From Nitrososphaeria archaeon (GTDB lineage Archaea > Thermoproteota > Nitrososphaeria > Nitrososphaerales > JAAOZN01), in NCBI GenBank assembly GCA_029775855.1, contig JARVJZ010000002.1:160001-224000 (forward strand): DNA of 64,000 bases, in the 5' to 3' direction. The position numbers and the translations under genes were made by a program. The stretch's first letter is position 1, and each line of letters opens with the position of its first letter. The notes under the pieces are model-generated. The model saw nothing but the letters and a program-made list of their open reading frames with translations. It was not told where the DNA came from and did no database searches. Shown one piece after another: positions 3,873-55,845 of this stretch.

Positions 3873-4691
3873 CTACCAAGCTTTTCTAGCAGCTAGCACC
3901 TTCTCCACCTCTGCAGTAATAGGAATGTTCTTAGCCTCCAAAGCTCTCACTAATGCAGCGTGCACCTCCTGGCGAATAATATAGCCAGCTTTATGCAGAA
4001 TAGTATCCCCAATTTCAGGGTCAACATCCATGCTTGCTGTGCACGGGTAGCCGTGGTGAGCATTAGAAGTGTTTTGATTAAGATCCTTAACGTGGGTGAA
4101 TCTGAGTTTCTGAGCAACATACCATGTGTCGCCACAAGGTGCGCTTCGCTTAACCACAATGTTCTTGATCAAGTATCCCTCTAGTTCCATTTCGAGTTTT
4201 GGTCTGCCGATTGAGTATCTGCGTATGAATTCATTTATAACTTCGCTTCCGCTTTCCTCAAGTTCGCAGAAGGGTTTAGGGAATGCGTGTTCAATACCTA
4301 ACTCGCTTAGTTCATCTTGCAGCCTAGATCTTAGTGCTGGCGGGCACCAGCTTCTGTTTTCGATTGGCACTATGACAGCCTTCGCTTCTGCCTTTGAGGC
4401 TACAGAGGGGATCTCCGCTAATATATCTGGGTGGATGCCTATTGGGATAACTATGTCAGATTTAGGTGGGGATTTTGGTAGATATTCGCTTGGGTTGTCG
4501 ATGAAAGGAGGCAGATTGGGTGGTATAGGGTGCAAGCCGACGATATCTCGAACATAAGAGCCGTAGGATATTCTACAGTAGCCGCAAGCAAGGTCACAAG
4601 ACTTACAGAAGGTGGGTAGGTTAACTAGGTTCCCTACAACCTTCTCCCCGAATTCGTGCCCTACTATAAAGTATAGCTTCAACGCTTCCAT
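3873..4691 (-). CDS. DUF166-family protein
   Basis: Motifs FIDNPSEYLP, GIHPD, PKPFCEL, RSAPCGDTWYVA, HHGYPCTASMDVD and ILHKAG are typical of archaeal DUF166. Confidence 0.8.
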   Translation of the reverse strand: MEALKLYFIVGHEFGEKVVGNLVNLPTFCKSCDLACGYCRISYGSYVRDIVGLHPIPPNLPPFIDNPSEYLPKSPPKSDIVIPIGIHPDILAEIPSVASKAEAKAVIVPIENRSWCPPALRSRLQDELSELGIEHAFPKPFCELEESGSEVINEFIRRYSIGRPKLEMELEGYLIKNIVVKRSAPCGDTWYVAQKLRFTHVKDLNQNTSNAHHGYPCTASMDVDPEIGDTILHKAGYIIRQEVHAALVRALEAKNIPITAEVEKVLAARKAW

Positions 4692-22602: not shown

Positions 22603-25600
22603 TTGGCTTTCATAAAGAGGCTTGAGATCAAAGGCTTCAAATCATTCGGCGAGAAGACTGTATCTTTAAAATTTGAGCCGGGGTTTACAGCGATAACTGG
22701 GCCTAATGGCGGTGGAAAGAGCAACATAATGGATGCCATACTTTTTGCATTAGGGGAAAATAATCCAAAGGCTCTTAGAGTCAATAAATTATCTTCGCTT
22801 ATCTATGAAAGCGGAGAAAGTCGGTTGCCTTCAACGAGAGTAAGCATCGTTTTCGACAACACGGATAAGACTATTCCAGTAGACTCTGAAACCGTTACAG
22901 TTACTCGAGAGATGGATGACAAAGGTGAAAGCACATATTATTTGAACGGTAAAAAGACTACTCGAAATGTAGTAGTAGAAATAATGAGCTTAGCGCTCAT
23001 TACGCGTGAGGGTTTCAATGTAGTTCCTCAAGGCATGGTTATGCACATCTCAGAGATGCATCCAGACGATAAGAGGAGGTTAATAGAGGATATAGCTGGG
23101 GTATCGCCTTTTGACGCTAAGAAGGCTGAGGCGCTTAAGCAGCTTCAAGAAGCTGACATGAGGCTTCAGGTAGCTATGGCTCGCATAGGTGAGATAGAGC
23201 AGAGAGTATATGCTCTTGAAGGAGAGAGGAATGACCAGCTTAGGCTAAGGCATCTGGAAGATGAAGTAAGGTGGGCTAAAGCACTCATAGCCTCCAGAAA
23301 CATAGCATTAGCCAGAAGACGGAGACAAGAAGAGGAAGTGAGAGCAAAAGAGAACTCAGCTAGGCTGCAGGAGTTGAACAATAGGCTAAACGATCTTAAA
23401 ACAGAGATCGCGAATGTTGAAGAAGAGAAAAAGAACTTTCTATCAAATGTGGTTGACAGCTCAGCTGGAAGACTGGTTGATCTACAGTCTAAGATAGGTA
23501 AACTTCTTTATGAAGATGAGAAGCTTAGAAGCGAGAAGTCAAATGCGTCGCTGAGACTCTTCGAGTTAAGAGAGGAGACACCGAAGTTAAAAGAGAGACT
23601 TCAGACATTATTGGTTGAAAGGAAGAATTTTGAGGAACAGCTCAAGGAAGATAACCAGAAACTTAAGGTGTTGGAGGATGAGAAGGCACGCTTAGAGAAA
23701 GATATATTCAATTTACAGAAGGAAAAAGCTAGGCTGCAAAAGATAATCCTCAACCTAAACAATAGGGTTGAGAGGCTAAAGATTGGACAAAGCAAACTTA
23801 CAGCCCGCTTAACTGAACTTAGATCAAAGGTAGAATTGGATAAGCAGAGGAAGAATATGCTTGAAGAGAGCCTTAACAATATAAAGGAGAGGTCAGCTAC
23901 TTTCCTAGAAACACTTAATACGCTTGAGCAGCACTTAAACCAGATACGCCAGTTTAAAGAATCTGAGCAAAACTCATTAAACAAGCTGAAGGAAGATGCG
24001 GATTCTTTAACAAAACGAATAGAGGCTGTCAATAAGGAGCTCACTTTATCACTAGGGGTGCTGGATAAAGCTAGCAGAAAACTACTACAGATAGATGCAC
24101 AACAGTCAACAATAGAAAGCGTTGCCCCCGAAGAAGTATCGGTTAATCTGCTGATTCAAGCTGCAAAAGATGGGGCGGTAGAGGGGGTAATTGGTAGATT
24201 TGGAGATTTGATTTCATTTAAGGATGAATATAAAGCAGCGGTCTTGGCGGCTGCAGATGAGTGGGCTGATGCGCTTGTAGTTGCTGATGTTAAGGCTATG
24301 CTTAGGGTTGCTGAGACTGCGAAGAGGCTTAAAGTAAAGAAGCTTAAAATTATACCGCTTTCTGAAGTTGCTGAAGTTGAGTTTGTGAGAAAACCTTTGC
24401 AAGCCGGTCTCTTAGGTTCCTTGGCTGATTATGTTGATTGTGGTTCGAATTTTAGAGGATTAGTAAATTTTATAATTGGAGATACGGTGTTAGCGGAGAC
24501 ACCTAGAGACGCCTACTTAGCATCACGACAAGGCTTGAGAGCCGTAACCTTGCAGGGATACCTTTTTGAGCCGGAGAGTAAAGGATTTAGGATGGGGTTT
24601 TCAGAGAAACTGAGAAACTTATCAAATATTTTAACTGAGAGCTCGGCTAAGGAGGATGTTGCTAAAGCCCTTAAAGCGCTTGAAGACATGATTAGAAAGC
24701 GTAAATCAGAGTTAGCTTCTCTAAACAAGGAGTTAACTCGGCTTAAAGACGAGCAGATAAAGAAGACGGTCAGCGTTGAGAAGATAGAAGCTGAAGCGGC
24801 AACCATATCAAAAGCTGTAGAGAGATACAGTAGGCTCGGAAATAAGGTGAAAAGGAGAATTGCGGCAGAAGCACAGAAGATTGAGGCGATAGAGAGAAGA
24901 ATAGATAGAACACTCACCAAAATAACCAATATAGAATCTATGTTAAAGACTATAGAGGAGCGGATAAAAGACCTCTCAGCAAAAATACCTATAGAAGAAG
25001 AGCAGAGAATCGCAGAAGAAATAGCCTCAAAGCAGAAGACCCTAGAAGAATTGGCTAATCAAATTAGAGAGCAGATCACAACAATCGCTAAGAGGAAAAG
25101 CGAGCTTGACTACCGACTTATACCAAATATTCAAGAAGTAGAAAAGGTGATAACTGAATATGACACAGAAGTAAAAGAGTTAGAGGCGTTCCTAAACTCT
25201 TCTGAAGAAAAAAGGAATACAATAGCCAAAGAACTCGAAACACTCAAGGAAGAAGAAAGTATACTCCTCAGTAAATCCAAGCAGAGCAGATCTCTAATAG
25301 AAGAATATGAAAGTAAACTCAAGCACCTTAGATCGCAAGAGGAGGCTCTAAGGCGCTCTATAAGCGTGGTTGAAAAAGAACTTCTACTTAACAACAAAAA
25401 CCTAGAGATGCTTGCTGATGCTGAACATAGGTATCTAAGTGAACTCTCAATCTACGGCTACACTGAACCTATAGAATATTTTGATGGTGTTGATGAATTA
25501 ATTAAGAAGCTGAGCGAAGAATACGACGAGCTCAGAAGACAAGTTAATCTACTCGCAGATGCACAATATAAAGAGACATACATAGGCTACAAGAACCTTT

Positions 25601-49375: not shown

Positions 49376-49762
49376 GTGGTAGTTACATCAAAAATTTACC
49401 GACAAACTATGGGGCATATAATAGTTAAGATAAAGATAGGCGACCCTGATAGGTCTAAGGTTTTAGAGGTTGAGGGCTTAGTTGATACCGGTGCAACCCT
49501 AACCGTAGTGCCTTACATAGTGGCGGAAGAGCTTGGGCTTAAGCCTACGGGGAGTAGTATCGTTGATAGTGGTGCTGGGAGACTTGAGTTAAAGCGCACG
49601 AGGATCTGGGTGGAAATAGAGGGTAAGAGTGAGGTAGTCCCTGCGCTAATCTCAGATGTGATAGGTAGAGTGCTGATAGGGGTCACTACACTAGAGGTTC
49701 TGGGACTTCAAGCAGACCCGCTGGCAGGAAGACTTAGAGAGTGGACTTTACTTCTCTACTAA
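49376..49762 (+). CDS. Retropepsin-like (clan AA) aspartic protease
   Basis: GLVDTGAT and LIGVTTLEVLGL motifs. Confidence 0.88.
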   Translation: MVVTSKIYRQTMGHIIVKIKIGDPDRSKVLEVEGLVDTGATLTVVPYIVAEELGLKPTGSSIVDSGAGRLELKRTRIWVEIEGKSEVVPALISDVIGRVLIGVTTLEVLGLQADPLAGRLREWTLLLY

Positions 49763-49840: not shown

Positions 49841-51709
49841 TTAACCCCAGATTTCCTTTGCTACATCTGTGAGACCTAGCTTTATCAGAGTCTCCTTTGT
49901 GGGTTTGCTCGTGTTTTTATCCCAACCTCTTGCTTCATAGTATTCATCAAGTGTCTTAGATAAGTCTACTACTTTTCCAGTCCTGCCCTTCTCCTCCAGA
50001 AGCCTCTTAGGCAGCTTATCATCCGCTCTCGTGGCGCCGTGCTTAACGTTGAAAGCCTTTCTAATGTTGATTATCCTTTCGCCAGCGAGCAGGGCGTCCT
50101 TTAGGGTTAGGTTTAAGCCTGTGACCGCGTTAAAGGTTTTAACGAAGTTTTCTTCAACCATGTATGCTGCGTTAATGTCCGCGAACCAGCACCAACCAGC
50201 AGATGAGATAAATGCTGTCCAATCTTCTATAACCTTCGCAGCAACCCCCTTACCCTCTGGTGAGTCAGTAGGCTTGGGTAAGCCTAAGCTATCTCTAGGC
50301 CTACCTAAGATCTCCCAGTCTATAGTAATCCCTTCAGTATGCCTACCACCTGTTATTGCGCAGGCATAGTGCGGCCCTCCTCCTTGGAATACTCTTGGGT
50401 CGTGGGCTGCCAGTTCTACGCCCTTCACTTGTATTGCGTATTCTTCGGCGCCTTTGCCTATGATCTTGGCTGCTCTTCTAGAGCCTTCTGCAAGTATATC
50501 TCCAAATCCATCTCTGAAGGCGATCTTCTCTATCATCTTGATCATCGCTTCTGCGTTGCCGAATCTTAGGTCAACCCCGTCTGTGTCTTCTTTTGTCAGC
50601 AACCCTTTTTCGAAGCACTCCATAGCGAACGCTATGGTTCCACCTGTAGATATTGTGTCTAAGCCGAAGAGGTTGCATAGGTCGTTCGCTTTGGCTACGG
50701 CTTTAGCATCTGTTACACCGCAATTTGAGCCGAGCATGCTTACTGTCTCATATTCAGGTCCTTCAACGTTAGGTTCGAATGAATATGCTCCTTCTTTCAC
50801 GGTTGATATTCTTCTGCAGCCTATTGGGCATAGGTAGCAGCTTCTGGTTCCAGATAGTATTGCGTCGTATCCTCCTGGCCAAGATAGTCCTTCTGGGTTG
50901 AGTTGTTTTGCTGTGTAGTTGAAGCCTGGTGTGTCTCCTAGCTGCCAGAGTGGCCCGAAGTATAGTGGTGTGCCTCCTTTGGAGAACATTTGAACATTTT
51001 TGTCTTCTTTTACAAATTTTATGACTTCTCCGCTAATTTTCCTCAGTTCTTCTGGGTGTGCTATTGGAACTTTACCCTCTCCTCTTACCGCCACAGCTTT
51101 AAGCTTCATAAACCCCATAACTGCACCTAAGCCACACCTACCAGCTATCCTATTCGCCTCATCTGTCAATATACCAGCGAACCTAACAAGATTTTCACCA
51201 GCCTGCCCTATATTCGAAACCTGAATCTTAGCATCACCAAGATCCCTTTTTAGGCTTCGATCTGACGCTCTAGCATCCATACCCCAGTAGGGTGAAGCAT
51301 CACCAAACCTAACCTCTCCATCCCTAATGAATACATATGTGGGTTTAGGCGCTCTACCAGTTATGACCACAAGATCATAACCAGCAGCCTTAAGCTCAGC
51401 ACCCCAGAACCCACCAGCATTCGCATCCCCAAAAAAACCTGTTAGAGGAGACTTCGAGACAACGCTATGTCTACCCGCTACAGGGGTTGGTGTGCCGTTT
51501 ACTGGCCCTGTAGCAAAGATGAGGAGGTTTTGCGGGTCGAAGGCTCCAACCCATGGTGGAACTTCGTCGTAGAGTATTCTACCCCCAACACCGTAACCTC
51601 CTATGTAGTTGTATGCTAGTTCTGGTGGTAAGGGTTGAGTTAAATGCTTCTTTCTGGTTAGGTCTATCCGTAGAATTTTACCTAAGTATCCTCCTCTAAA
51701 TCCGCTCAT
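49841..51709 (-). CDS. aor: Tungsten aldehyde:ferredoxin oxidoreductase
   Basis: KILRIDLT, SKSPLTG, GQAGENLV, GRCGLGAVMG, CYLCPIGC, EGPEYET, DTISTG, HDPR, YYEARGWD. Confidence 0.93.
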   Translation of the reverse strand: MSGFRGGYLGKILRIDLTRKKHLTQPLPPELAYNYIGGYGVGGRILYDEVPPWVGAFDPQNLLIFATGPVNGTPTPVAGRHSVVSKSPLTGFFGDANAGGFWGAELKAAGYDLVVITGRAPKPTYVFIRDGEVRFGDASPYWGMDARASDRSLKRDLGDAKIQVSNIGQAGENLVRFAGILTDEANRIAGRCGLGAVMGFMKLKAVAVRGEGKVPIAHPEELRKISGEVIKFVKEDKNVQMFSKGGTPLYFGPLWQLGDTPGFNYTAKQLNPEGLSWPGGYDAILSGTRSCYLCPIGCRRISTVKEGAYSFEPNVEGPEYETVSMLGSNCGVTDAKAVAKANDLCNLFGLDTISTGGTIAFAMECFEKGLLTKEDTDGVDLRFGNAEAMIKMIEKIAFRDGFGDILAEGSRRAAKIIGKGAEEYAIQVKGVELAAHDPRVFQGGGPHYACAITGGRHTEGITIDWEILGRPRDSLGLPKPTDSPEGKGVAAKVIEDWTAFISSAGWCWFADINAAYMVEENFVKTFNAVTGLNLTLKDALLAGERIINIRKAFNVKHGATRADDKLPKRLLEEKGRTGKVVDLSKTLDEYYEARGWDKNTSKPTKETLIKLGLTDVAKEIWG

Positions 51710-51942
51710 AGAGCAAGTTATGTTTAAGCGAATATTTTAATATTGTCTATTAAGTTGGAGTCAATTTCTACGCTGAAGTTAAAAGATGCTAAAACATCTA
51801 AGTTTCAGATAATATTTGTCAGAGGTTTATGACATTAATTTTCGAGTTAGGTTGATTCTTAATCTAATTTTGACATTTGGTTTAGTGATTGAATCATATA
51901 TTAAAATGTGATAGTGCTGCAGTTATGTTTATTTAAGCCTGC

Positions 51943-51958
51943 GTTCACCACGGTGAAC
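51943..51958. promoter_or_regulatory. parS-like 16-bp palindrome GTTCACC-AC-GGTGAAC (candidate ParB operator)
   Basis: Perfect 7-bp arms, located between TTTATTTAAG (51928-51937) and the start of the parB-like gene (51966). Confidence 0.6.
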
Positions 51959-51965
51959 AGTAATC

Positions 51966-53066
51966 TTGAGTGTGTGGAATGAATTTAAGCTGATTCCGCT
52001 CGATAAGATTGAATCAAATCCTTACGCTGCTAGGTTAGATCAAAATGTCGGGGTTGATAAGCTTGCTGAGTCTATGAGTAGGCATGGGCAACTCGCTGAT
52101 GTGCTTGTTAGGGTTCATCCCGCATCTAAAGATAGGTTTCAGCTGATTTATGGGCATAGGAGAGTTGCTGCGGCTAGGCTTCTCGGTTGGCAGAATGTTA
52201 AGGCTAAGGTTGTTGAAGCTTCAGAAGAAGAGATGCTTATAATGGCGCTCATAGAGAACATCGAGAGAAAAGATTTTACAGCATATGAGAAAGCAAGAAT
52301 CTTCCTAAGGCTAAATAAAGAATTCAAACGGAGTTATGAGGAGATTGCTAGGCTCATAGGGCGGAGTAAAGCGTATGTAGCGCAGCACATCGCTATGCTT
52401 GAACTATTCACAGAGGAGCAGATGAAGGATCCTGAAGTTATAAATCTGCTTCAATCGTTAACCGAAAGGCAAGCAAGAATACTTCTTAGGATAAAAGATC
52501 CGAATGAAAGGCTGGCTACCGCTAAAATAGTAGTGAATGAGAATCTCTGTGTAAAAGAAGTTGAGAAGCTCGTCGGTAGGCCCAGAGAGAACGCAAACAT
52601 CACAAAAGACAGACATAAAAAGAAAACTATGGAGACTATTTCAGATGTAGAAAAGATCAAAAGGAAGGTTCTTGAACTTTTCGAGTGGGTAGAGCACAAG
52701 AACCTTCAACCGTTGATAACCTTAAGGCTTGAAAGAGAGTTTACAGCGTTTGATGACTTTCCACCTTATACTAGACTTGGATATAGAGATGCTCTTGTCC
52801 AAAACTTCCATCTTATTGAGTCTTGGAAGGGTGAGTTCAAGCTTCGCTGTGAGGGGTTGAAGGTTAGGGTCTTCGGGGAAACAGGTTTGGCTACATTTTA
52901 CATACACTATGATGTGCTCTACAACGGGAGACCGTTCAGATCTACTTCAAGAGTAACCTTCGTCTTTCTAAAGCGTGGAGATAACTGGTATATCATACAC
53001 GAGCATTGGTCTCCACTAAAAGTGTCAGAGTTAGTAGAGATTGGCGGTAAAGATGATAAGGGTTAA
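51966..53066 (+). CDS. ParB/Spo0J-like CTPase-HTH protein fused to a C-terminal SnoaL/NTF2-like domain
   Basis: NPYAAR, LIYGHRRVAAA, ALIENIERKD, HTH SYEEIARLIGRSKAYVAQHI; C-terminal RVTFVFLKRGDNWYIIHEHWS typical of SnoaL-like domains. Confidence 0.85.
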   Translation: MSVWNEFKLIPLDKIESNPYAARLDQNVGVDKLAESMSRHGQLADVLVRVHPASKDRFQLIYGHRRVAAARLLGWQNVKAKVVEASEEEMLIMALIENIERKDFTAYEKARIFLRLNKEFKRSYEEIARLIGRSKAYVAQHIAMLELFTEEQMKDPEVINLLQSLTERQARILLRIKDPNERLATAKIVVNENLCVKEVEKLVGRPRENANITKDRHKKKTMETISDVEKIKRKVLELFEWVEHKNLQPLITLRLEREFTAFDDFPPYTRLGYRDALVQNFHLIESWKGEFKLRCEGLKVRVFGETGLATFYIHYDVLYNGRPFRSTSRVTFVFLKRGDNWYIIHEHWSPLKVSELVEIGGKDDKG

Positions 53067-54475
53067 CTGCCGCATTCGGCGTCGAGTGCTGTAAGAGCAT
53101 AGTCGATAGCATCTATTGCTCTATCGATCTCTTCTTCTGTAACTGTTAAAGCTGGTCCTATTCTTAGGCAGTTTGGTGTGAAGCCTCCTACTAGAACGCC
53201 TTTTTCAAGCGCTTTAGCTTGAACTATGTTTACAGCCCACTTGCTTACATCCCCAGTGCCTTTTGTGAATCTATCCTCTGGGAAGAATGGTTCTTTCTTC
53301 TTTTTGTTTCTAACCAGCTCTATTCCCCAGAATAGTCCTAATCCTGAGACTTGCCCTACGCATTCATGTTTTGACTCTAATTCGTTAAGTCTTCTTCCAA
53401 GATATTCTCCCATCTTAGCAGCTCTAGCTGGCAGATTCTCCTCCATCATCAGCTTAATGTTTTCGCATACCGCAGCCATAACTACTGGATGAGATGAGAA
53501 GGTAGCGGCATGCCACCACCTATAATCGTCGAGAAACTTAGCTATCTCCTTACTCACAACGACACCAGCTGCTGGTAGCTGTGAGCTTACAATACCCTTA
53601 GCCATAGTCATAATGTCCGGCGTCACATCATAATGCTGATAGCAGAACCAGCTCCCAGTTCTACCGAAACCCGTCATAACCTCATCATCTATCCAAAGGA
53701 TACCATATTTTCTAGTCAAATCTCGGAGACCCTTAATCCACTCAGGAGGCGAAATCACAAGCCCGCCACCACTTATAATCTCAGTTATGACTGCAGCAAC
53801 ATTTTGAGGACCAAGGTTCTGAATCATATACTCCATATCCTTTAAGCACGCAACATAGCCTCCTGACTGGCATTCACGAGGTGAATCATACCCATAGGGG
53901 CACCTGTAGCAGAAAGGTGCTCTTGCTACATAGAAGCCTTGGGCTGGGAAGCCTTGAACCTCTTTGTATTCGCCTCGAGCATTTGCTATGGTGTTGCGCC
54001 ACCATCTGAATGTTGAGCACGAGCCTGCTCCAAGTGTCCAGCCGTGGTAAGAGAATTCCCTACTTATGATGAATGGTCTTCCTGTGTAGAGTTTGGCTAA
54101 TATGAGGGCTTCTTCGTTCGCTTCGCTTCCGGAGCTGACAAACCTTACTTTGCCAGCCCAGCCGTCTTTACCAAGTATGTCTTCTACGATTAGTTTTGCT
54201 GCTAGCGATTTGTAGGGTGTCTGCATAATCTCCCATACATATCCATATCTGTCAAGAGACTGCTTTATCGCTTCTATAACCTTAGGCTGCCTCTGCCCAG
54301 CATTTACCGAAATTAACCCAGAGAGGAAGTCAAGGATCTTTGAGCCATCAGGTGTGATTATGTAGCTTCCCTCGACTCGCTCTACAGGGATAGGCATCCA
54401 TTCTTCTGCAGACTGCTTTATCCTCAGATAATACTTTTTATCCCATTCTATTACTTTATCCCAATCCACATTCAA
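53063..54475 (-). CDS. Class III (omega) PLP aminotransferase
   Basis: SGSEANE, SYHGWT, DDEVMTGFGRTG, PDIMTMAKG, GLGLFWGIEL. Confidence 0.92.
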   Translation of the reverse strand: MNVDWDKVIEWDKKYYLRIKQSAEEWMPIPVERVEGSYIITPDGSKILDFLSGLISVNAGQRQPKVIEAIKQSLDRYGYVWEIMQTPYKSLAAKLIVEDILGKDGWAGKVRFVSSGSEANEEALILAKLYTGRPFIISREFSYHGWTLGAGSCSTFRWWRNTIANARGEYKEVQGFPAQGFYVARAPFCYRCPYGYDSPRECQSGGYVACLKDMEYMIQNLGPQNVAAVITEIISGGGLVISPPEWIKGLRDLTRKYGILWIDDEVMTGFGRTGSWFCYQHYDVTPDIMTMAKGIVSSQLPAAGVVVSKEIAKFLDDYRWWHAATFSSHPVVMAAVCENIKLMMEENLPARAAKMGEYLGRRLNELESKHECVGQVSGLGLFWGIELVRNKKKKEPFFPEDRFTKGTGDVSKWAVNIVQAKALEKGVLVGGFTPNCLRIGPALTVTEEEIDRAIDAIDYALTALDAECGS

Positions 54476-54540: not shown

Positions 54541-55845
54541 TCATCTATTTATAACATTAAGGTCCCAAGGATATTTAGTTAGAACTTCGCATCCATCTTC
54601 AGTAACTAACACCACATTTTCAAGACGAGCTGCACCTAGACCCACTTGCATTATAAGCGGCTCAACCGCCATAACCATGCCAGCTTCAAGAGGCTTTTTA
54701 TTACCTTGCTGTATGAAAGCTGCTTCAGTAGTTTCGTGGCATACTAAACCTATAGAGTGCCCTACATAGCAGGTATTCTCCTGAACCTGTGGTTCCATAA
54801 AGAGCTTTTGGGATGAGTCTATTCTACTCCAGCCAGACTTTAGGAAGACACGCTCAGATATTTTATAGAGTTCATCGCCAGTAACCCCAGGTTTTATCGC
54901 TTCGATTACCTTCTTATTCATCTCGTATGTAATTTTAAAGATCTTAGTTAACCAGCGAGGCGGCTCTCCTATTACAGCGGTTCTTGTTATATCTGATATA
55001 TATCCTCGGTAGTTTGCTCCTAGATCTAGGCATATCGGTTCACCTCTTCTGATTCTGTAGTCAGTGACCTTCTCTTCAGCGTATGTTATCTGCTGCCCAG
55101 CCTTTATTAGTAGTGGATGACCCCAGTGGTCCCAAGCGCCAGCCTTCAGCATAGCCCTATATATTTCTCCAGCGACTTCAGCCTCTGTTACACCTGGAGC
55201 AAGCGCCTTCATACCGGCGTCCATACCTATGTCTGCTATCTCGCAAGATCTTCTGAGTAGTCGAATTTCTAGTGGTGTTTTGATGGCTCTGATGCGCCAA
55301 AGGAGCCTTGAAGCATAAACGAATTTGGCTTTTGGTAGCAGCTTCTTGAATTTGTTGTAGGCTGCGAGGTTAAGGTCGTCCTCTTCAACGCCTATAGTCT
55401 TATCTCCTAAGCCTAACTCATCTACAGCTTCTTTAATTATGACCTCAGCTGGTTTACCATTATGTGGTCTTATACTTTCTAAGCGGAAGTAGGGGAGCAT
55501 AGAGATAGCACCAAGATAGTTATATGAAACCATCGTTATCACTGGGTCTCTTTCTTCTCTTGTTATGAGTGCATATTGTTCGCTTCCCGGTCTATCATAC
55601 CACCCTGGATAGTAACCCGTGAGGTAAAATATGCTATGGTAATTCGAGAGTATTGCCGCATCTATTCCAGCAGCCTCTAACGCCTTCCTATATTTTCTAA
55701 GACGCTCCCTTACTTCCACTTCCTGCTCCTTAACATTAAAGCCTATAGTAAGATTTGGGTAGCCTTCGCTGCTTGCCATAACCTTTCTTACATCTTGCAT
55801 TATAAGATCTGGGTTTTTAATCCCCCATTTCTGCCACTCTTTCAA
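54541..55845 (-). CDS. M24 Xaa-Pro peptidase/creatinase-family hydrolase
   Basis: RAIKTPLEI, DLGANYRGYISDITRT, GHSIGL..HE, AVEP, RLENVVLVT. Confidence 0.9.
   Translation of the reverse strand: MKEWQKWGIKNPDLIMQDVRKVMASSEGYPNLTIGFNVKEQEVEVRERLRKYRKALEAAGIDAAILSNYHSIFYLTGYYPGWYDRPGSEQYALITREERDPVITMVSYNYLGAISMLPYFRLESIRPHNGKPAEVIIKEAVDELGLGDKTIGVEEDDLNLAAYNKFKKLLPKAKFVYASRLLWRIRAIKTPLEIRLLRRSCEIADIGMDAGMKALAPGVTEAEVAGEIYRAMLKAGAWDHWGHPLLIKAGQQITYAEEKVTDYRIRRGEPICLDLGANYRGYISDITRTAVIGEPPRWLTKIFKITYEMNKKVIEAIKPGVTGDELYKISERVFLKSGWSRIDSSQKLFMEPQVQENTCYVGHSIGLVCHETTEAAFIQQGNKKPLEAGMVMAVEPLIMQVGLGAARLENVVLVTEDGCEVLTKYPWDLNVINR

Follow-up and report, generated by a model that had tools for sequence, protein, structure and literature searches.

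In a 64,000-nucleotide (nt) stretch of the genome of a Nitrososphaeria archaeon (assembly GCA_029775855.1, contig JARVJZ010000002.1, positions 160,001 to 224,000; hereafter the window), we analysed a gene whose product joins the core of a ParB-type DNA-binding protein to an NTF2-like domain, here called ParB-NTF2, together with a palindrome in its promoter. The promoter palindrome is a real, conserved element, and comparison with relatives indicates that ParB-NTF2 is probably a site-specific regulator that acts at it. The protein is most likely a gene regulator and not a chromosome-partition protein. Since the palindrome is invariant in 8 of 8 close promoters and related palindromes stand beside distant family members, autoregulation, which a preliminary description of this DNA had proposed, appears to be its best reading. 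The features are as follows (aa, amino acids; HTH, helix-turn-helix).

51928..51937, + strand: TATA-like element TTTATTTAAG, read from the sequence, with a presumed TATA role
51943..51958, unstranded: 7-2-7 inverted repeat GTTCACCACGGTGAAC, presumed binding or loading site (conservation, uniqueness)
51966..53066, + strand: ParB-NTF2 gene, 366 aa, TTG start, stop included (open reading frame, Pfam, NCBIfam)
51981..52262, + strand: ParB_N domain (ParB-CTPase fold), aa 6-99, with GHRR and ENIER (Pfam PF02195, structure alignment)
52272..52580, + strand: ParB-type HTH DNA-binding domain, aa 103-205 (Pfam PF17762, alignment to Noc)
52581..52649, + strand: variable charged linker RPRENANITKDRHKKKTMETIS, about aa 206-228 (columns poorly conserved in alignment A1)
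52650..53021, + strand: NTF2-like domain (SnoaL_3/DUF4440/CaMKII-association-type), about aa 229-352, predicted homodimerisation module (Pfam, profile, prediction)

The promoter palindrome and its conservation

The palindrome, GTTCACC-AC-GGTGAAC, lies 5 nt past the TATA-like element and 7 nt before the TTG start codon. Each of its two inverted arms is 7 nt long, and the AC dinucleotide between them lacks self-complementarity; the preliminary description had correctly placed the element between the TATA box and the start, but it is not the perfect 16-base-pair (bp) palindrome that was described. In archaea the distance from the TATA centre to the transcription start is usually about 26 nt, and by this spacing the palindrome would span about -16 to -1 of its own promoter. 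The window contains a single match, compared with a mean of 0.05 in 100 shuffles, five of which had a match. A scan of the 1,507,471-base genome for GTTCACC-N2-GGTGAAC recovered only this one perfect copy, 235 nt from the start codon of the neighbouring AOR gene and 1.1 kilobases (kb) from the 3' end of an aminotransferase gene, but no further perfect copy that could cluster or precede catabolic genes, as had been envisaged. Variants with two mismatches occur at three extra places in the genome, as many as with a reversed control pattern, and are unrelated to the LivF-like gene of genome G002 discussed below. The GTTCACC half-site, with 98 forward and 84 reverse occurrences compared with 55 and 64 for a control, is too common to inform.

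We compared this promoter with those of a close clade, made up of three more genomes of the same genus (G001-G003; G000 is the window's own genome) and five distinct metagenome loci, whose proteins are 76-85% identical to that of the window. GTTCACC-NN-GGTGAAC stands at the same place in all of these loci, and the alignment of eight distinct upstream sequences shows no change at any of the 14 arm positions, in agreement with the conservation upstream of homologs on which the preliminary description had made its proposal depend. The centre varies (AC, GT, CT, TT, CG), one close-clade site reading GTTCACCCGGGTGAAC, and nearly all other intergenic columns vary as well, except for the TATA-like box and TGAG at the start codon. 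In 7 of the 8 aligned promoters the palindrome is preceded, at a distance of 4-6 nt, by a TTTA-TTTA(A/G)G-like element, and all eight keep TTG or ATG followed by AG at the start position. The upstream gene is AOR in the window, L008, L029/L033 and L031 and another gene in the remaining close loci, and the site accompanies the regulator's promoter even where the upstream gene differs. G001, too, has the perfect site only once in its genome. The invariance of the arms, without compensatory change, favours readout by a protein over an RNA structure. Two sites with one mismatch, in G003 (contig C102) and in G009 (contig C147), lie within open reading frames (ORFs) unconnected to the gene and were taken as chance. 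The ParB-NTF2 copy of G003 itself (L010, G003:C104, about 1392-2366) is read through one TAG near its 3' end and is followed by a separate short match; the gene could be broken, or the metagenome-assembled genome could be misassembled at this point.

Domain make-up, nucleotide pocket and predicted dimer

Pfam searches placed a ParB_N domain (PF02195) at aa 6-99 (E 3.9e-14, 52.9 bits, above the cut-off of 26.3) and an HTH_ParB domain (PF17762) at aa 103-205 (E 5.7e-15, 55.8 bits, above the cut-off of 22.6), and the first 180 residues scored 120.4 bits with the NCBIfam model TIGR00180 parB_part (ParB/RepB/Spo0J), whose cut-off is 58.45. Solved structures of ParB, Spo0J, Noc and KorB could be aligned to the N-terminal 220 residues (4umk, 7.1e-22; 7ng0, 3.3e-20; 8qa8, 3.6e-7; also 6sdk and 6t1f/7bm8). 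The GHRR (aa 63-66) and ENIER (aa 97-101) motifs and the HTH named in the preliminary description were all found. The proposed swap of the C-terminal dimerisation domain for an NTF2/SnoaL-like domain was also borne out: SnoaL_3 matches aa 272-350 (E 8.2e-9, 36.3 bits against a cut-off of 22), with a weaker match to DUF4440, and the query has no match to the ParB C-terminal dimerisation domain PF23552 at E up to 1, so that aa 229-352 are NTF2-like where canonical ParB has PF23552. The protein does not end at WYIIHEHWS (aa 341-349), as had been stated, since 17 more residues come after HEHWS. Window DNA occurs in sequencing runs labelled hot springs metagenome. One of 14 runs is recorded as RNA; over 51500-53400 it gave one 271-nt contig (52042-52311, 5 differences) and none over the promoter, and it says nothing on transcription or the start site of the gene.

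In a set of 80 family sequences, E97 and N98 are present in all 80, R101 in 78, R49 in 77 and R23 in 70; G63, R65 and R66, which occur in all 80 by construction, are also found in 20 of 20 sequences of alignment A1. It is likely, to judge from these residues, that ParB-NTF2 binds a nucleoside triphosphate (NTP). The glutamate of the GERR motif is replaced by H64 in the window protein, and the family has H in 57 sequences, N in 16, A in 2, S in 2, G in 1 and R in 1 of the 80, never E. For Caulobacter ParB, the E102A variant is reported to bind cytidine triphosphate (CTP), close and entrap DNA with no CTP hydrolysis, a state called 'clamp-locked' (PMC8367383); from the numbering of R104, E102 would be the GERR glutamate. 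Because this glutamate is absent, hydrolysis is doubtful, and fast NTP hydrolysis by ParB-NTF2 seems unlikely. The preliminary description had spoken of intact CTP-binding motifs and a CTPase; the arginines of Box II (GxRR) and the nucleotide and Mg contacts of Box III (ENxxR) are indeed kept, but the hydrolysis residue is not.

It is also conceivable that ParB-NTF2 is a static HTH repressor, an ordinary dimer on the palindrome whose ParB N-domain is only structural or protein-binding. The loss of the hydrolysis glutamate from 80 of 80 sequences is consistent with such a protein, simple steric repression would be enough at a site that overlaps the core promoter, and 17 of 28 purified ParB-fold proteins are reported to show no NTP binding in vitro (PMC12704722). 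However, E97, N98, R101, R23 and R49 lie outside the pattern by which the 80 sequences were selected, and their conservation points to selection on the nucleotide pocket. Furthermore, the variable position of the site, in the promoter here and 3' or distal elsewhere, fits loading and sliding better than static binding. We consider a purely static repressor unlikely, although it is to be taken seriously.

The NTF2-like assignment of the C-terminus was supported by profile comparison. A profile of 21 family C-domains (A2) aligned with the solved NTF2-like structure 3f7s along profile positions 5-128 (1.8e-10), and it also matched 3bb9 (2.3e-8) and the CaMKII association (hub) domain 1hkx (6.7e-6). 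The HEHWS strand is a general feature of this NTF2 subfamily, with IHEHWS in 3f7s and THVHWS in 3bb9. Stand-alone NTF2-like homologues, 135-170 aa long, are spread through the same order, and the nearest protein-atlas clusters, SnoaL_3/DUF4440/YybH at 0.85-0.86, fall under the 0.9 mark and are leads only. Two copies of aa 222-366 were predicted to form a homodimer with a score of 0.76, compared with 0.01 for the best of three controls; 74% or more of the contacts recur between runs, the partner (NTF2 domain) has a predicted local distance difference test (pLDDT) value of at least 80, and 20 of 30 proteins solved as one-chain pairs reach the mark applied, compared with 1 of 23 single-chain structures. 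The predicted interface comprises aa 258-270, 299-310, 329-335 and 344-353 and holds R329, T331, H345, H347, W348 and S349, which are among the most conserved residues in the 80 sequences; H345, H347 and W348 belong to the selection pattern of that set, yet they are invariant also in A1, which was chosen otherwise. Since homodimerisation is predicted to run through the most conserved residues, the NTF2 domain would most simply be a replacement for the missing ParB C-terminal dimerisation domain.

The preliminary description had instead assigned metabolite sensing to this domain. In such a ligand-responsive regulator, the NTF2 cone would bind a pathway metabolite (an omega-amine, an aldehyde or a peptide-derived compound) that alters DNA binding or clamp opening, and the protein would control catabolic and transport genes as well as itself, which is compatible with a regulator acting at its own palindrome. 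The claim finds little footing in the most conserved residues, HEHWS included, which lie in the predicted dimer interface and are generic to the subfamily (HVHWS in 3bb9, HEHWS in 3f7s). However, the polar residues D/N246 (74 of 80), Y315 (50 of 80) and E346 (70 of 80) are conserved off the interface and could line a pocket, which leaves room for a pocket function. Sister ParB cores carry enzyme-like C-termini (Cyclase PF04199 in P0023, a BcrAD_BadFG ATPase in P0154), and fused SnoaL-type domains are reported to modulate the ECF41 and sigma-J factors (PMC5766207, PMC3426412). Ligand control through the NTF2 domain is therefore possible in our view, but on the unlikely side.

Related sites and gene neighbourhoods in the family

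Among 1.84 billion cluster representatives, 107 proteins matched at E below 1e-30, and about 90 of the 150 listed representatives match over nearly full length. Pfam searches on 18 family proteins confirmed SnoaL_3 in 10 and gave other C-termini for the rest. A full-length match is present in 6 of 41 sampled relatives, namely G000-G003, G009 and G025, where the G003 copy is the one read through a TAG and that of G025 consists of two adjacent matches in one 398-aa frame. Across the class it is present in 3 of 401 sampled genomes, and none of the 224 genomes of family f13 or the 78 of f15 has it. The ParB-NTF2 fusion is sporadic.

Distant members, at 29-46% identity, have no palindrome between TATA and start in L011, L012 or the other distant loci scanned. 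Related palindromes nevertheless adjoin many of these genes. When a 16-bp palindrome was required to be centred on CCCGGG and to have 6 or more of its 7 arm pairs, a single one was located no further than 400 nt from the gene in 12 of 20 distinct distant loci, and none was found in the 82.9 kb of these loci beyond that distance. The mean in 200 shuffles was 0.12 and the maximum 2. Examples are GTCTGCCCGGGCAGAC, GTTTGCCCGGGCAAAC, CTTTTCCCGGGAAAAG and TTTCACCCGGGTGAAA. For background, 54 ParB-only and other loci (228 kb) were scanned for CC..GG palindromes with 6 or 7 of the 7 arm pairs. There were 20, among them 3 centred on CCCGGG, and none of these three is perfect; this background is imperfect, as those loci also encode ParB relatives. 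The close-clade site GTTCACCCGGGTGAAC and the distant site TTTCACCCGGGTGAAA together indicate that the two site designs are one family. The palindromes for which the preliminary description had suggested a survey upstream of ParB-SnoaL genes in other archaea thus exist in related form, but mostly not upstream. The site precedes a co-directional gene in several loci, encoding SBP_bac_5 (L037, L038, L044), an amino-acid permease (L036) or a creatininase (L039). Post-stop CCCGGG palindromes were seen in L036, L037, L038, L039, L042, L043, L044 and L054, and by eye the distant site lies about 110-150 nt upstream of the TATA-like box of the next gene.

The position of these distant sites raises the question of whether the palindrome might work as RNA, as a 5' hairpin in the window's clade or as a 3' terminator-like hairpin in the distant one. 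GC-rich inverted repeats can fold, and 10 of the 12 distant palindromes lie at or just past the 3' end of the gene. However, the invariant arms of the 8 close promoters show neither compensatory nor G-U changes, and the element of the window's clade, placed between the TATA-like box and the start, would probably be mostly untranscribed. In addition, no T-run follows the distant sites, and the CCCGGG core is kept across diverged arms, which points to sequence readout. A role as RNA is very unlikely.

The sites also resemble those of bacterial ParB-family proteins, for which the consensus sequences are given as TGTTTCAC-GTGAAACA for parS and TATTTCCC-GGGAAATA for the Noc-binding site (NBS) (PMC7383237). 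Set in register with NBS, family sites have its CCC|GGG core and often its T-run, and CTTTTCCC|GGGAAAAG agrees with NBS at 6 of 8 half-site positions. Compared with canonical parS, the half-sites of the window are 4 bp further apart if aligned on TTCAC, and they are NBS-like if kept in register. GRSKAYVAQHIAML and TERQAR of ParB-NTF2 align to the DNA-contacting segments of Noc, as described in PMC7383237, where Noc R201 is reported to make the C6:G-6 contact of NBS. TERQAR aligns with TERHAR of Noc in the HMMER alignment, which places an arginine at the position of R201; across the 80 family sequences this position is R in 34, H in 30, K in 7 and G in 5. Residues of the HTH differ with the type of site, with ...YVAQH... 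accompanying TCACC arms and ...H(V/I)xN(Y/I/L)... accompanying TGCC and TTCC arms, a pattern that is no more than suggestive.

As for the neighbouring genes, the arrangement given in the preliminary description agrees with the coordinates. AOR (49841-51709, -) is divergent from ParB-NTF2; a class-III aminotransferase gene (53063-54475, -) is convergent with it, with a 4-bp overlap, and beyond it lie an M24/creatinase-like peptidase gene (54541-55845, -) and, further on, an amino-acid permease gene. Between a molybdopterin oxidoreductase gene and AOR there is a 128-aa ORF (49376-49762, +) with a retropepsin-like Asp_protease_2 match (E 3e-8). Of the 9 close loci, 8 retain the aminotransferase next to the gene, and only about half retain AOR. 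The exception is G002, whose only close aminotransferase homologue (74% identical) lies on another contig (L114, G002:C16; 2128-3534). A second perfect palindrome, GTTCACCAAGGTGAAC, is found there at 4339-4354, about 0.8 kb past the 3' end of the homologue and inside a LivF-like ABC ATPase gene, and a rough calculation makes a chance perfect site at that place very unlikely. This second site is coding (V-H-Q-G-E), G002 is rated 8% contaminated, and no close LivF-like orthologue was found in G000, G001 or G003 (best 52% identity). The neighbours of distant family members include peptide and amino-acid transporters, amidohydrolases, racemases, aldehyde dehydrogenases and similar genes. We set aside the aminotransferase of L074 as a parallel in context, since it is HemL/GntE-like and 26% identical to that of the window, a loose likeness.

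These contexts fit a family whose members act as local regulators at loci for catabolism and transport. The idea that ParB-NTF2 regulates a catabolic island gains only indirectly from the retained aminotransferase, the second G002 site and the catabolic and transport neighbours, but only one site exists in the window's genome. The same observations bear on control by a ligand. The aminotransferase linkage, the G002 site near the homologue and the distant sites placed between the regulator and a co-directional SBP_bac_5, permease or creatininase gene would all suit a metabolite-responsive regulator, whereas the single genome site, with its distances to AOR and the aminotransferase, and the coding position, missing close orthologue and contamination of the G002 case argue against it. 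It is a reading that we would give roughly one chance in a few, alongside a regulator acting at its own palindrome.

We also considered whether the palindrome could be a parS-like centromere, serving segregation or the loading of SMC. One site per genome beside a parB-like gene is common for parS, the palindrome is parS/NBS-like, and an SMC gene is present in the same window: a 1189-aa frame, with a match to the SMC hinge domain at 24181-24513, is located some 27 kb upstream of ParB-NTF2, close to the ~26 kb given in the preliminary description. No link was found between the SMC gene and the ParB-NTF2 gene. As had been stated, no parA was seen nearby, and the 19 scanned ORFs from 39240 to 63862 that encode 110 aa or more gave no ParA-type Pfam match, 7 of them matching no Pfam family at all. 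The ParA-binding motif (L/F/I)G(K/R)G(L/F/I) is not in the query and occurs in 1 of the 80 family sequences. Several further points stand against a centromere. The fusion is sporadic, as the counts above indicate; several paralogues can occur in one genome or on one contig (L036 with L074; L038 with L047); the site lies within a core promoter; and archaeal HTH-ParBs are reported to adjoin ParA rarely and are judged unlikely to act in segregation (PMC12704722). Moreover, the genome has a second gene with ParB_N and HTH domains, of 294 aa (G000:C6:140484-141368; L005 1456-2340), and ParBs of about 280-310 aa are present in most sampled genomes of the order. The preliminary description had itself regarded an SMC loader as the less likely option, and, with no ParA features found and a sporadic fusion, a partition or SMC-loading role is highly improbable.

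The 3.2-kb locus of this second ParB (L005), whose gene follows a 297-aa ORF with an HTH-like N-terminus, contains no palindrome in which 7 or more of 8 pairs match. Two SnoaL-fused ParBs, in L074 (3953-5320) and L112, have a GKSKEYVSHRIRLLSLPE-like HTH that resembles the 294-aa type and not the window protein; no CCCGGG palindrome lies beside either, and they may represent an independent fusion of the same two folds. Relatives of the ParB N-terminal and HTH core with other C-termini include, besides the cyclase of P0023 and the BadF/BadG/BcrA/BcrD-type ATPase of P0154, close relatives with 120-170-aa tails without Pfam match (P0024, P0078, P0086, P0089, P0094, P0109, P0142, P0152). The canonical ParB C-domain is present in none of these ten.

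Proposed mechanism, known systems and meaning

We propose that ParB-NTF2 would be a dimer held by its NTF2 domain as a permanent contact, as the homodimer prediction suggests. Its two ParB-type HTHs would read the two GTTCACC arms, which is suggested by the conservation and uniqueness of the site and by the co-occurrence of site and gene across the family. Occupancy of the site would hinder recruitment of TFB and RNA polymerase and thereby repress the gene itself, at least in this genus, where the position of the palindrome favours such an effect. The N-domain would bind an NTP, presumably CTP, and may close as a clamp like KorB, Noc and ParB, with sliding to neighbouring genes; this step is suggested by the conserved motifs and by the variable site position in the family. 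Release would not come through fast hydrolysis, given the missing glutamate, hydrolysis being probably slow or absent. We hold clamp-and-slide behaviour to be possible yet rather doubtful. A bolder version, an undescribed archaeal class of nucleotide-gated ParB clamps with a private NBS-like site for each paralogue, an NTF2 dimer gate and release by a cone-bound metabolite, coupled to the catabolism of amino compounds (aminotransferase, AOR, transporters), is a long shot.

Several points weigh against a regulator acting at its own promoter palindrome in this way. The link between protein and site is one that we infer, and the reading as a whole rests on sequence and prediction. The 80 family sequences were chosen with a pattern requiring G.RR and H.HW[STA], so that those positions are conserved by construction, and no member of the set has the GERR glutamate. 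Nucleotide preference of the ParB-CTPase fold is reported not to be predictable from sequence or from AlphaFold3 (PMC12704722). The homodimer score may partly mirror likeness to solved NTF2 dimers. The covariation of HTH and site has exceptions (L034, L039) and is confounded by phylogeny. Of the 20 distant loci, 8 are without the CCCGGG-centred palindrome, although one of these contigs ends 17 nt past the open frame; L074 and L112 are two others of the 8. Where it is present, only 2 of the 12 sites are upstream (L012, L041) and the rest are at or past the 3' end, so that simple autorepression is not the family-wide mode.

Among known systems, KorB of plasmid RK2 and VirB of Shigella, which are CTP-dependent regulator clamps, are alike in combining a ParB-CTPase fold with an HTH, in having a palindrome at or near promoters and in lacking a ParA role at their sites. 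KorB (8qa8) matches the N-half of ParB-NTF2 at E 3.6e-7. KorB operators range from promoter-proximal to distal, and family sites are likewise promoter-proximal here and distal elsewhere. The comparison with a KorB-type operator is based on a conserved palindrome in the own core promoter and beside the genes of relatives, with binding presumed. Unlike KorB, ParB-NTF2 has an NTF2-like C-terminal dimer, an archaeal TATA/TFB promoter and no known KorA-like partner, and it lacks the GERR glutamate; the KorB domain PF08535 gave no match to the query at E up to 1 and weak sub-threshold matches in P0089, P0154 and P0177.

Noc is similar in its 16-bp palindromes, which share the CC/GG core of NBS, and in the arginine aligned with R201; its model TIGR04285 scored 119.9 bits, below the cut-off of 315, and its structures 7ng0 and 7nfu matched at about 1e-20. 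Noc acts in nucleoid occlusion in Firmicutes and has many sites per genome, in contrast to the one site per genome, different C-terminus and archaeal host found here. With canonical ParB/Spo0J, ParB-NTF2 shares ParB_N and HTH_ParB, the GxRR and ENxxR motifs, a 16-bp inverted repeat beside the gene and the TIGR00180 match; it differs in having no ParA, no LG(R/K)GL, no PF23552 and H for E in GERR.

A C-terminally fused NTF2/SnoaL-type domain is likewise described for ECF41/ECF56 sigma factors, such as M. tuberculosis sigma-J (PMC5766207, PMC3426412). Unlike these factors, ParB-NTF2 is built on a ParB-HTH and not a sigma scaffold, and its domain is SnoaL_3/DUF4440/CaMKII-association-type (CaMKII-AD) and not SnoaL_2; the SnoaL_2 domain contacts the sigma domains of its own chain, whereas that of ParB-NTF2 is predicted to dimerise. 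Stand-alone NTF2 proteins (3f7s, 3bb9, 1hkx) show a nearly whole-domain profile match and a common W-x-I-x-H-x-H-W-S C-terminal strand, but the domain of the window protein follows a DNA-binding ParB core in the same chain.

Among bacteria, a handful of plasmid and virulence systems are known to have ParB-CTPase clamps that regulate transcription (KorB, VirB), and we know of no function or DNA site assigned to the orphan archaeal HTH-ParBs. The main text of a 2025 survey of ParB-CTPase fusions contains no SnoaL, NTF2 or DUF4440, its larger datasets possibly standing outside the text checked (PMC12704722), and a full-text literature search for ParB with SnoaL gave no paper on the architecture, as judged by titles and the starts of abstracts. 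What appears to be new, on sequence grounds, is an archaeal ParB-family regulator whose dimerisation or sensor domain has been exchanged and whose cognate site can be identified, the kind of regulator being already known. Should ParB-NTF2 be a static repressor only, it would be a modest addition to archaeal transcription factors. If loading and sliding hold true, CTP-clamp regulation would extend to archaeal TATA/TFB promoters, and ParB-NTF2 would be a natural 'hydrolysis-dead' clamp; if ligand binding by the NTF2 domain holds true, it would be the first metabolite-gated ParB clamp. In each case, the window provides a testable protein-site pair for an archaeal family, with a conserved site design, a swapped dimerising C-domain and a hydrolysis residue that is naturally missing.

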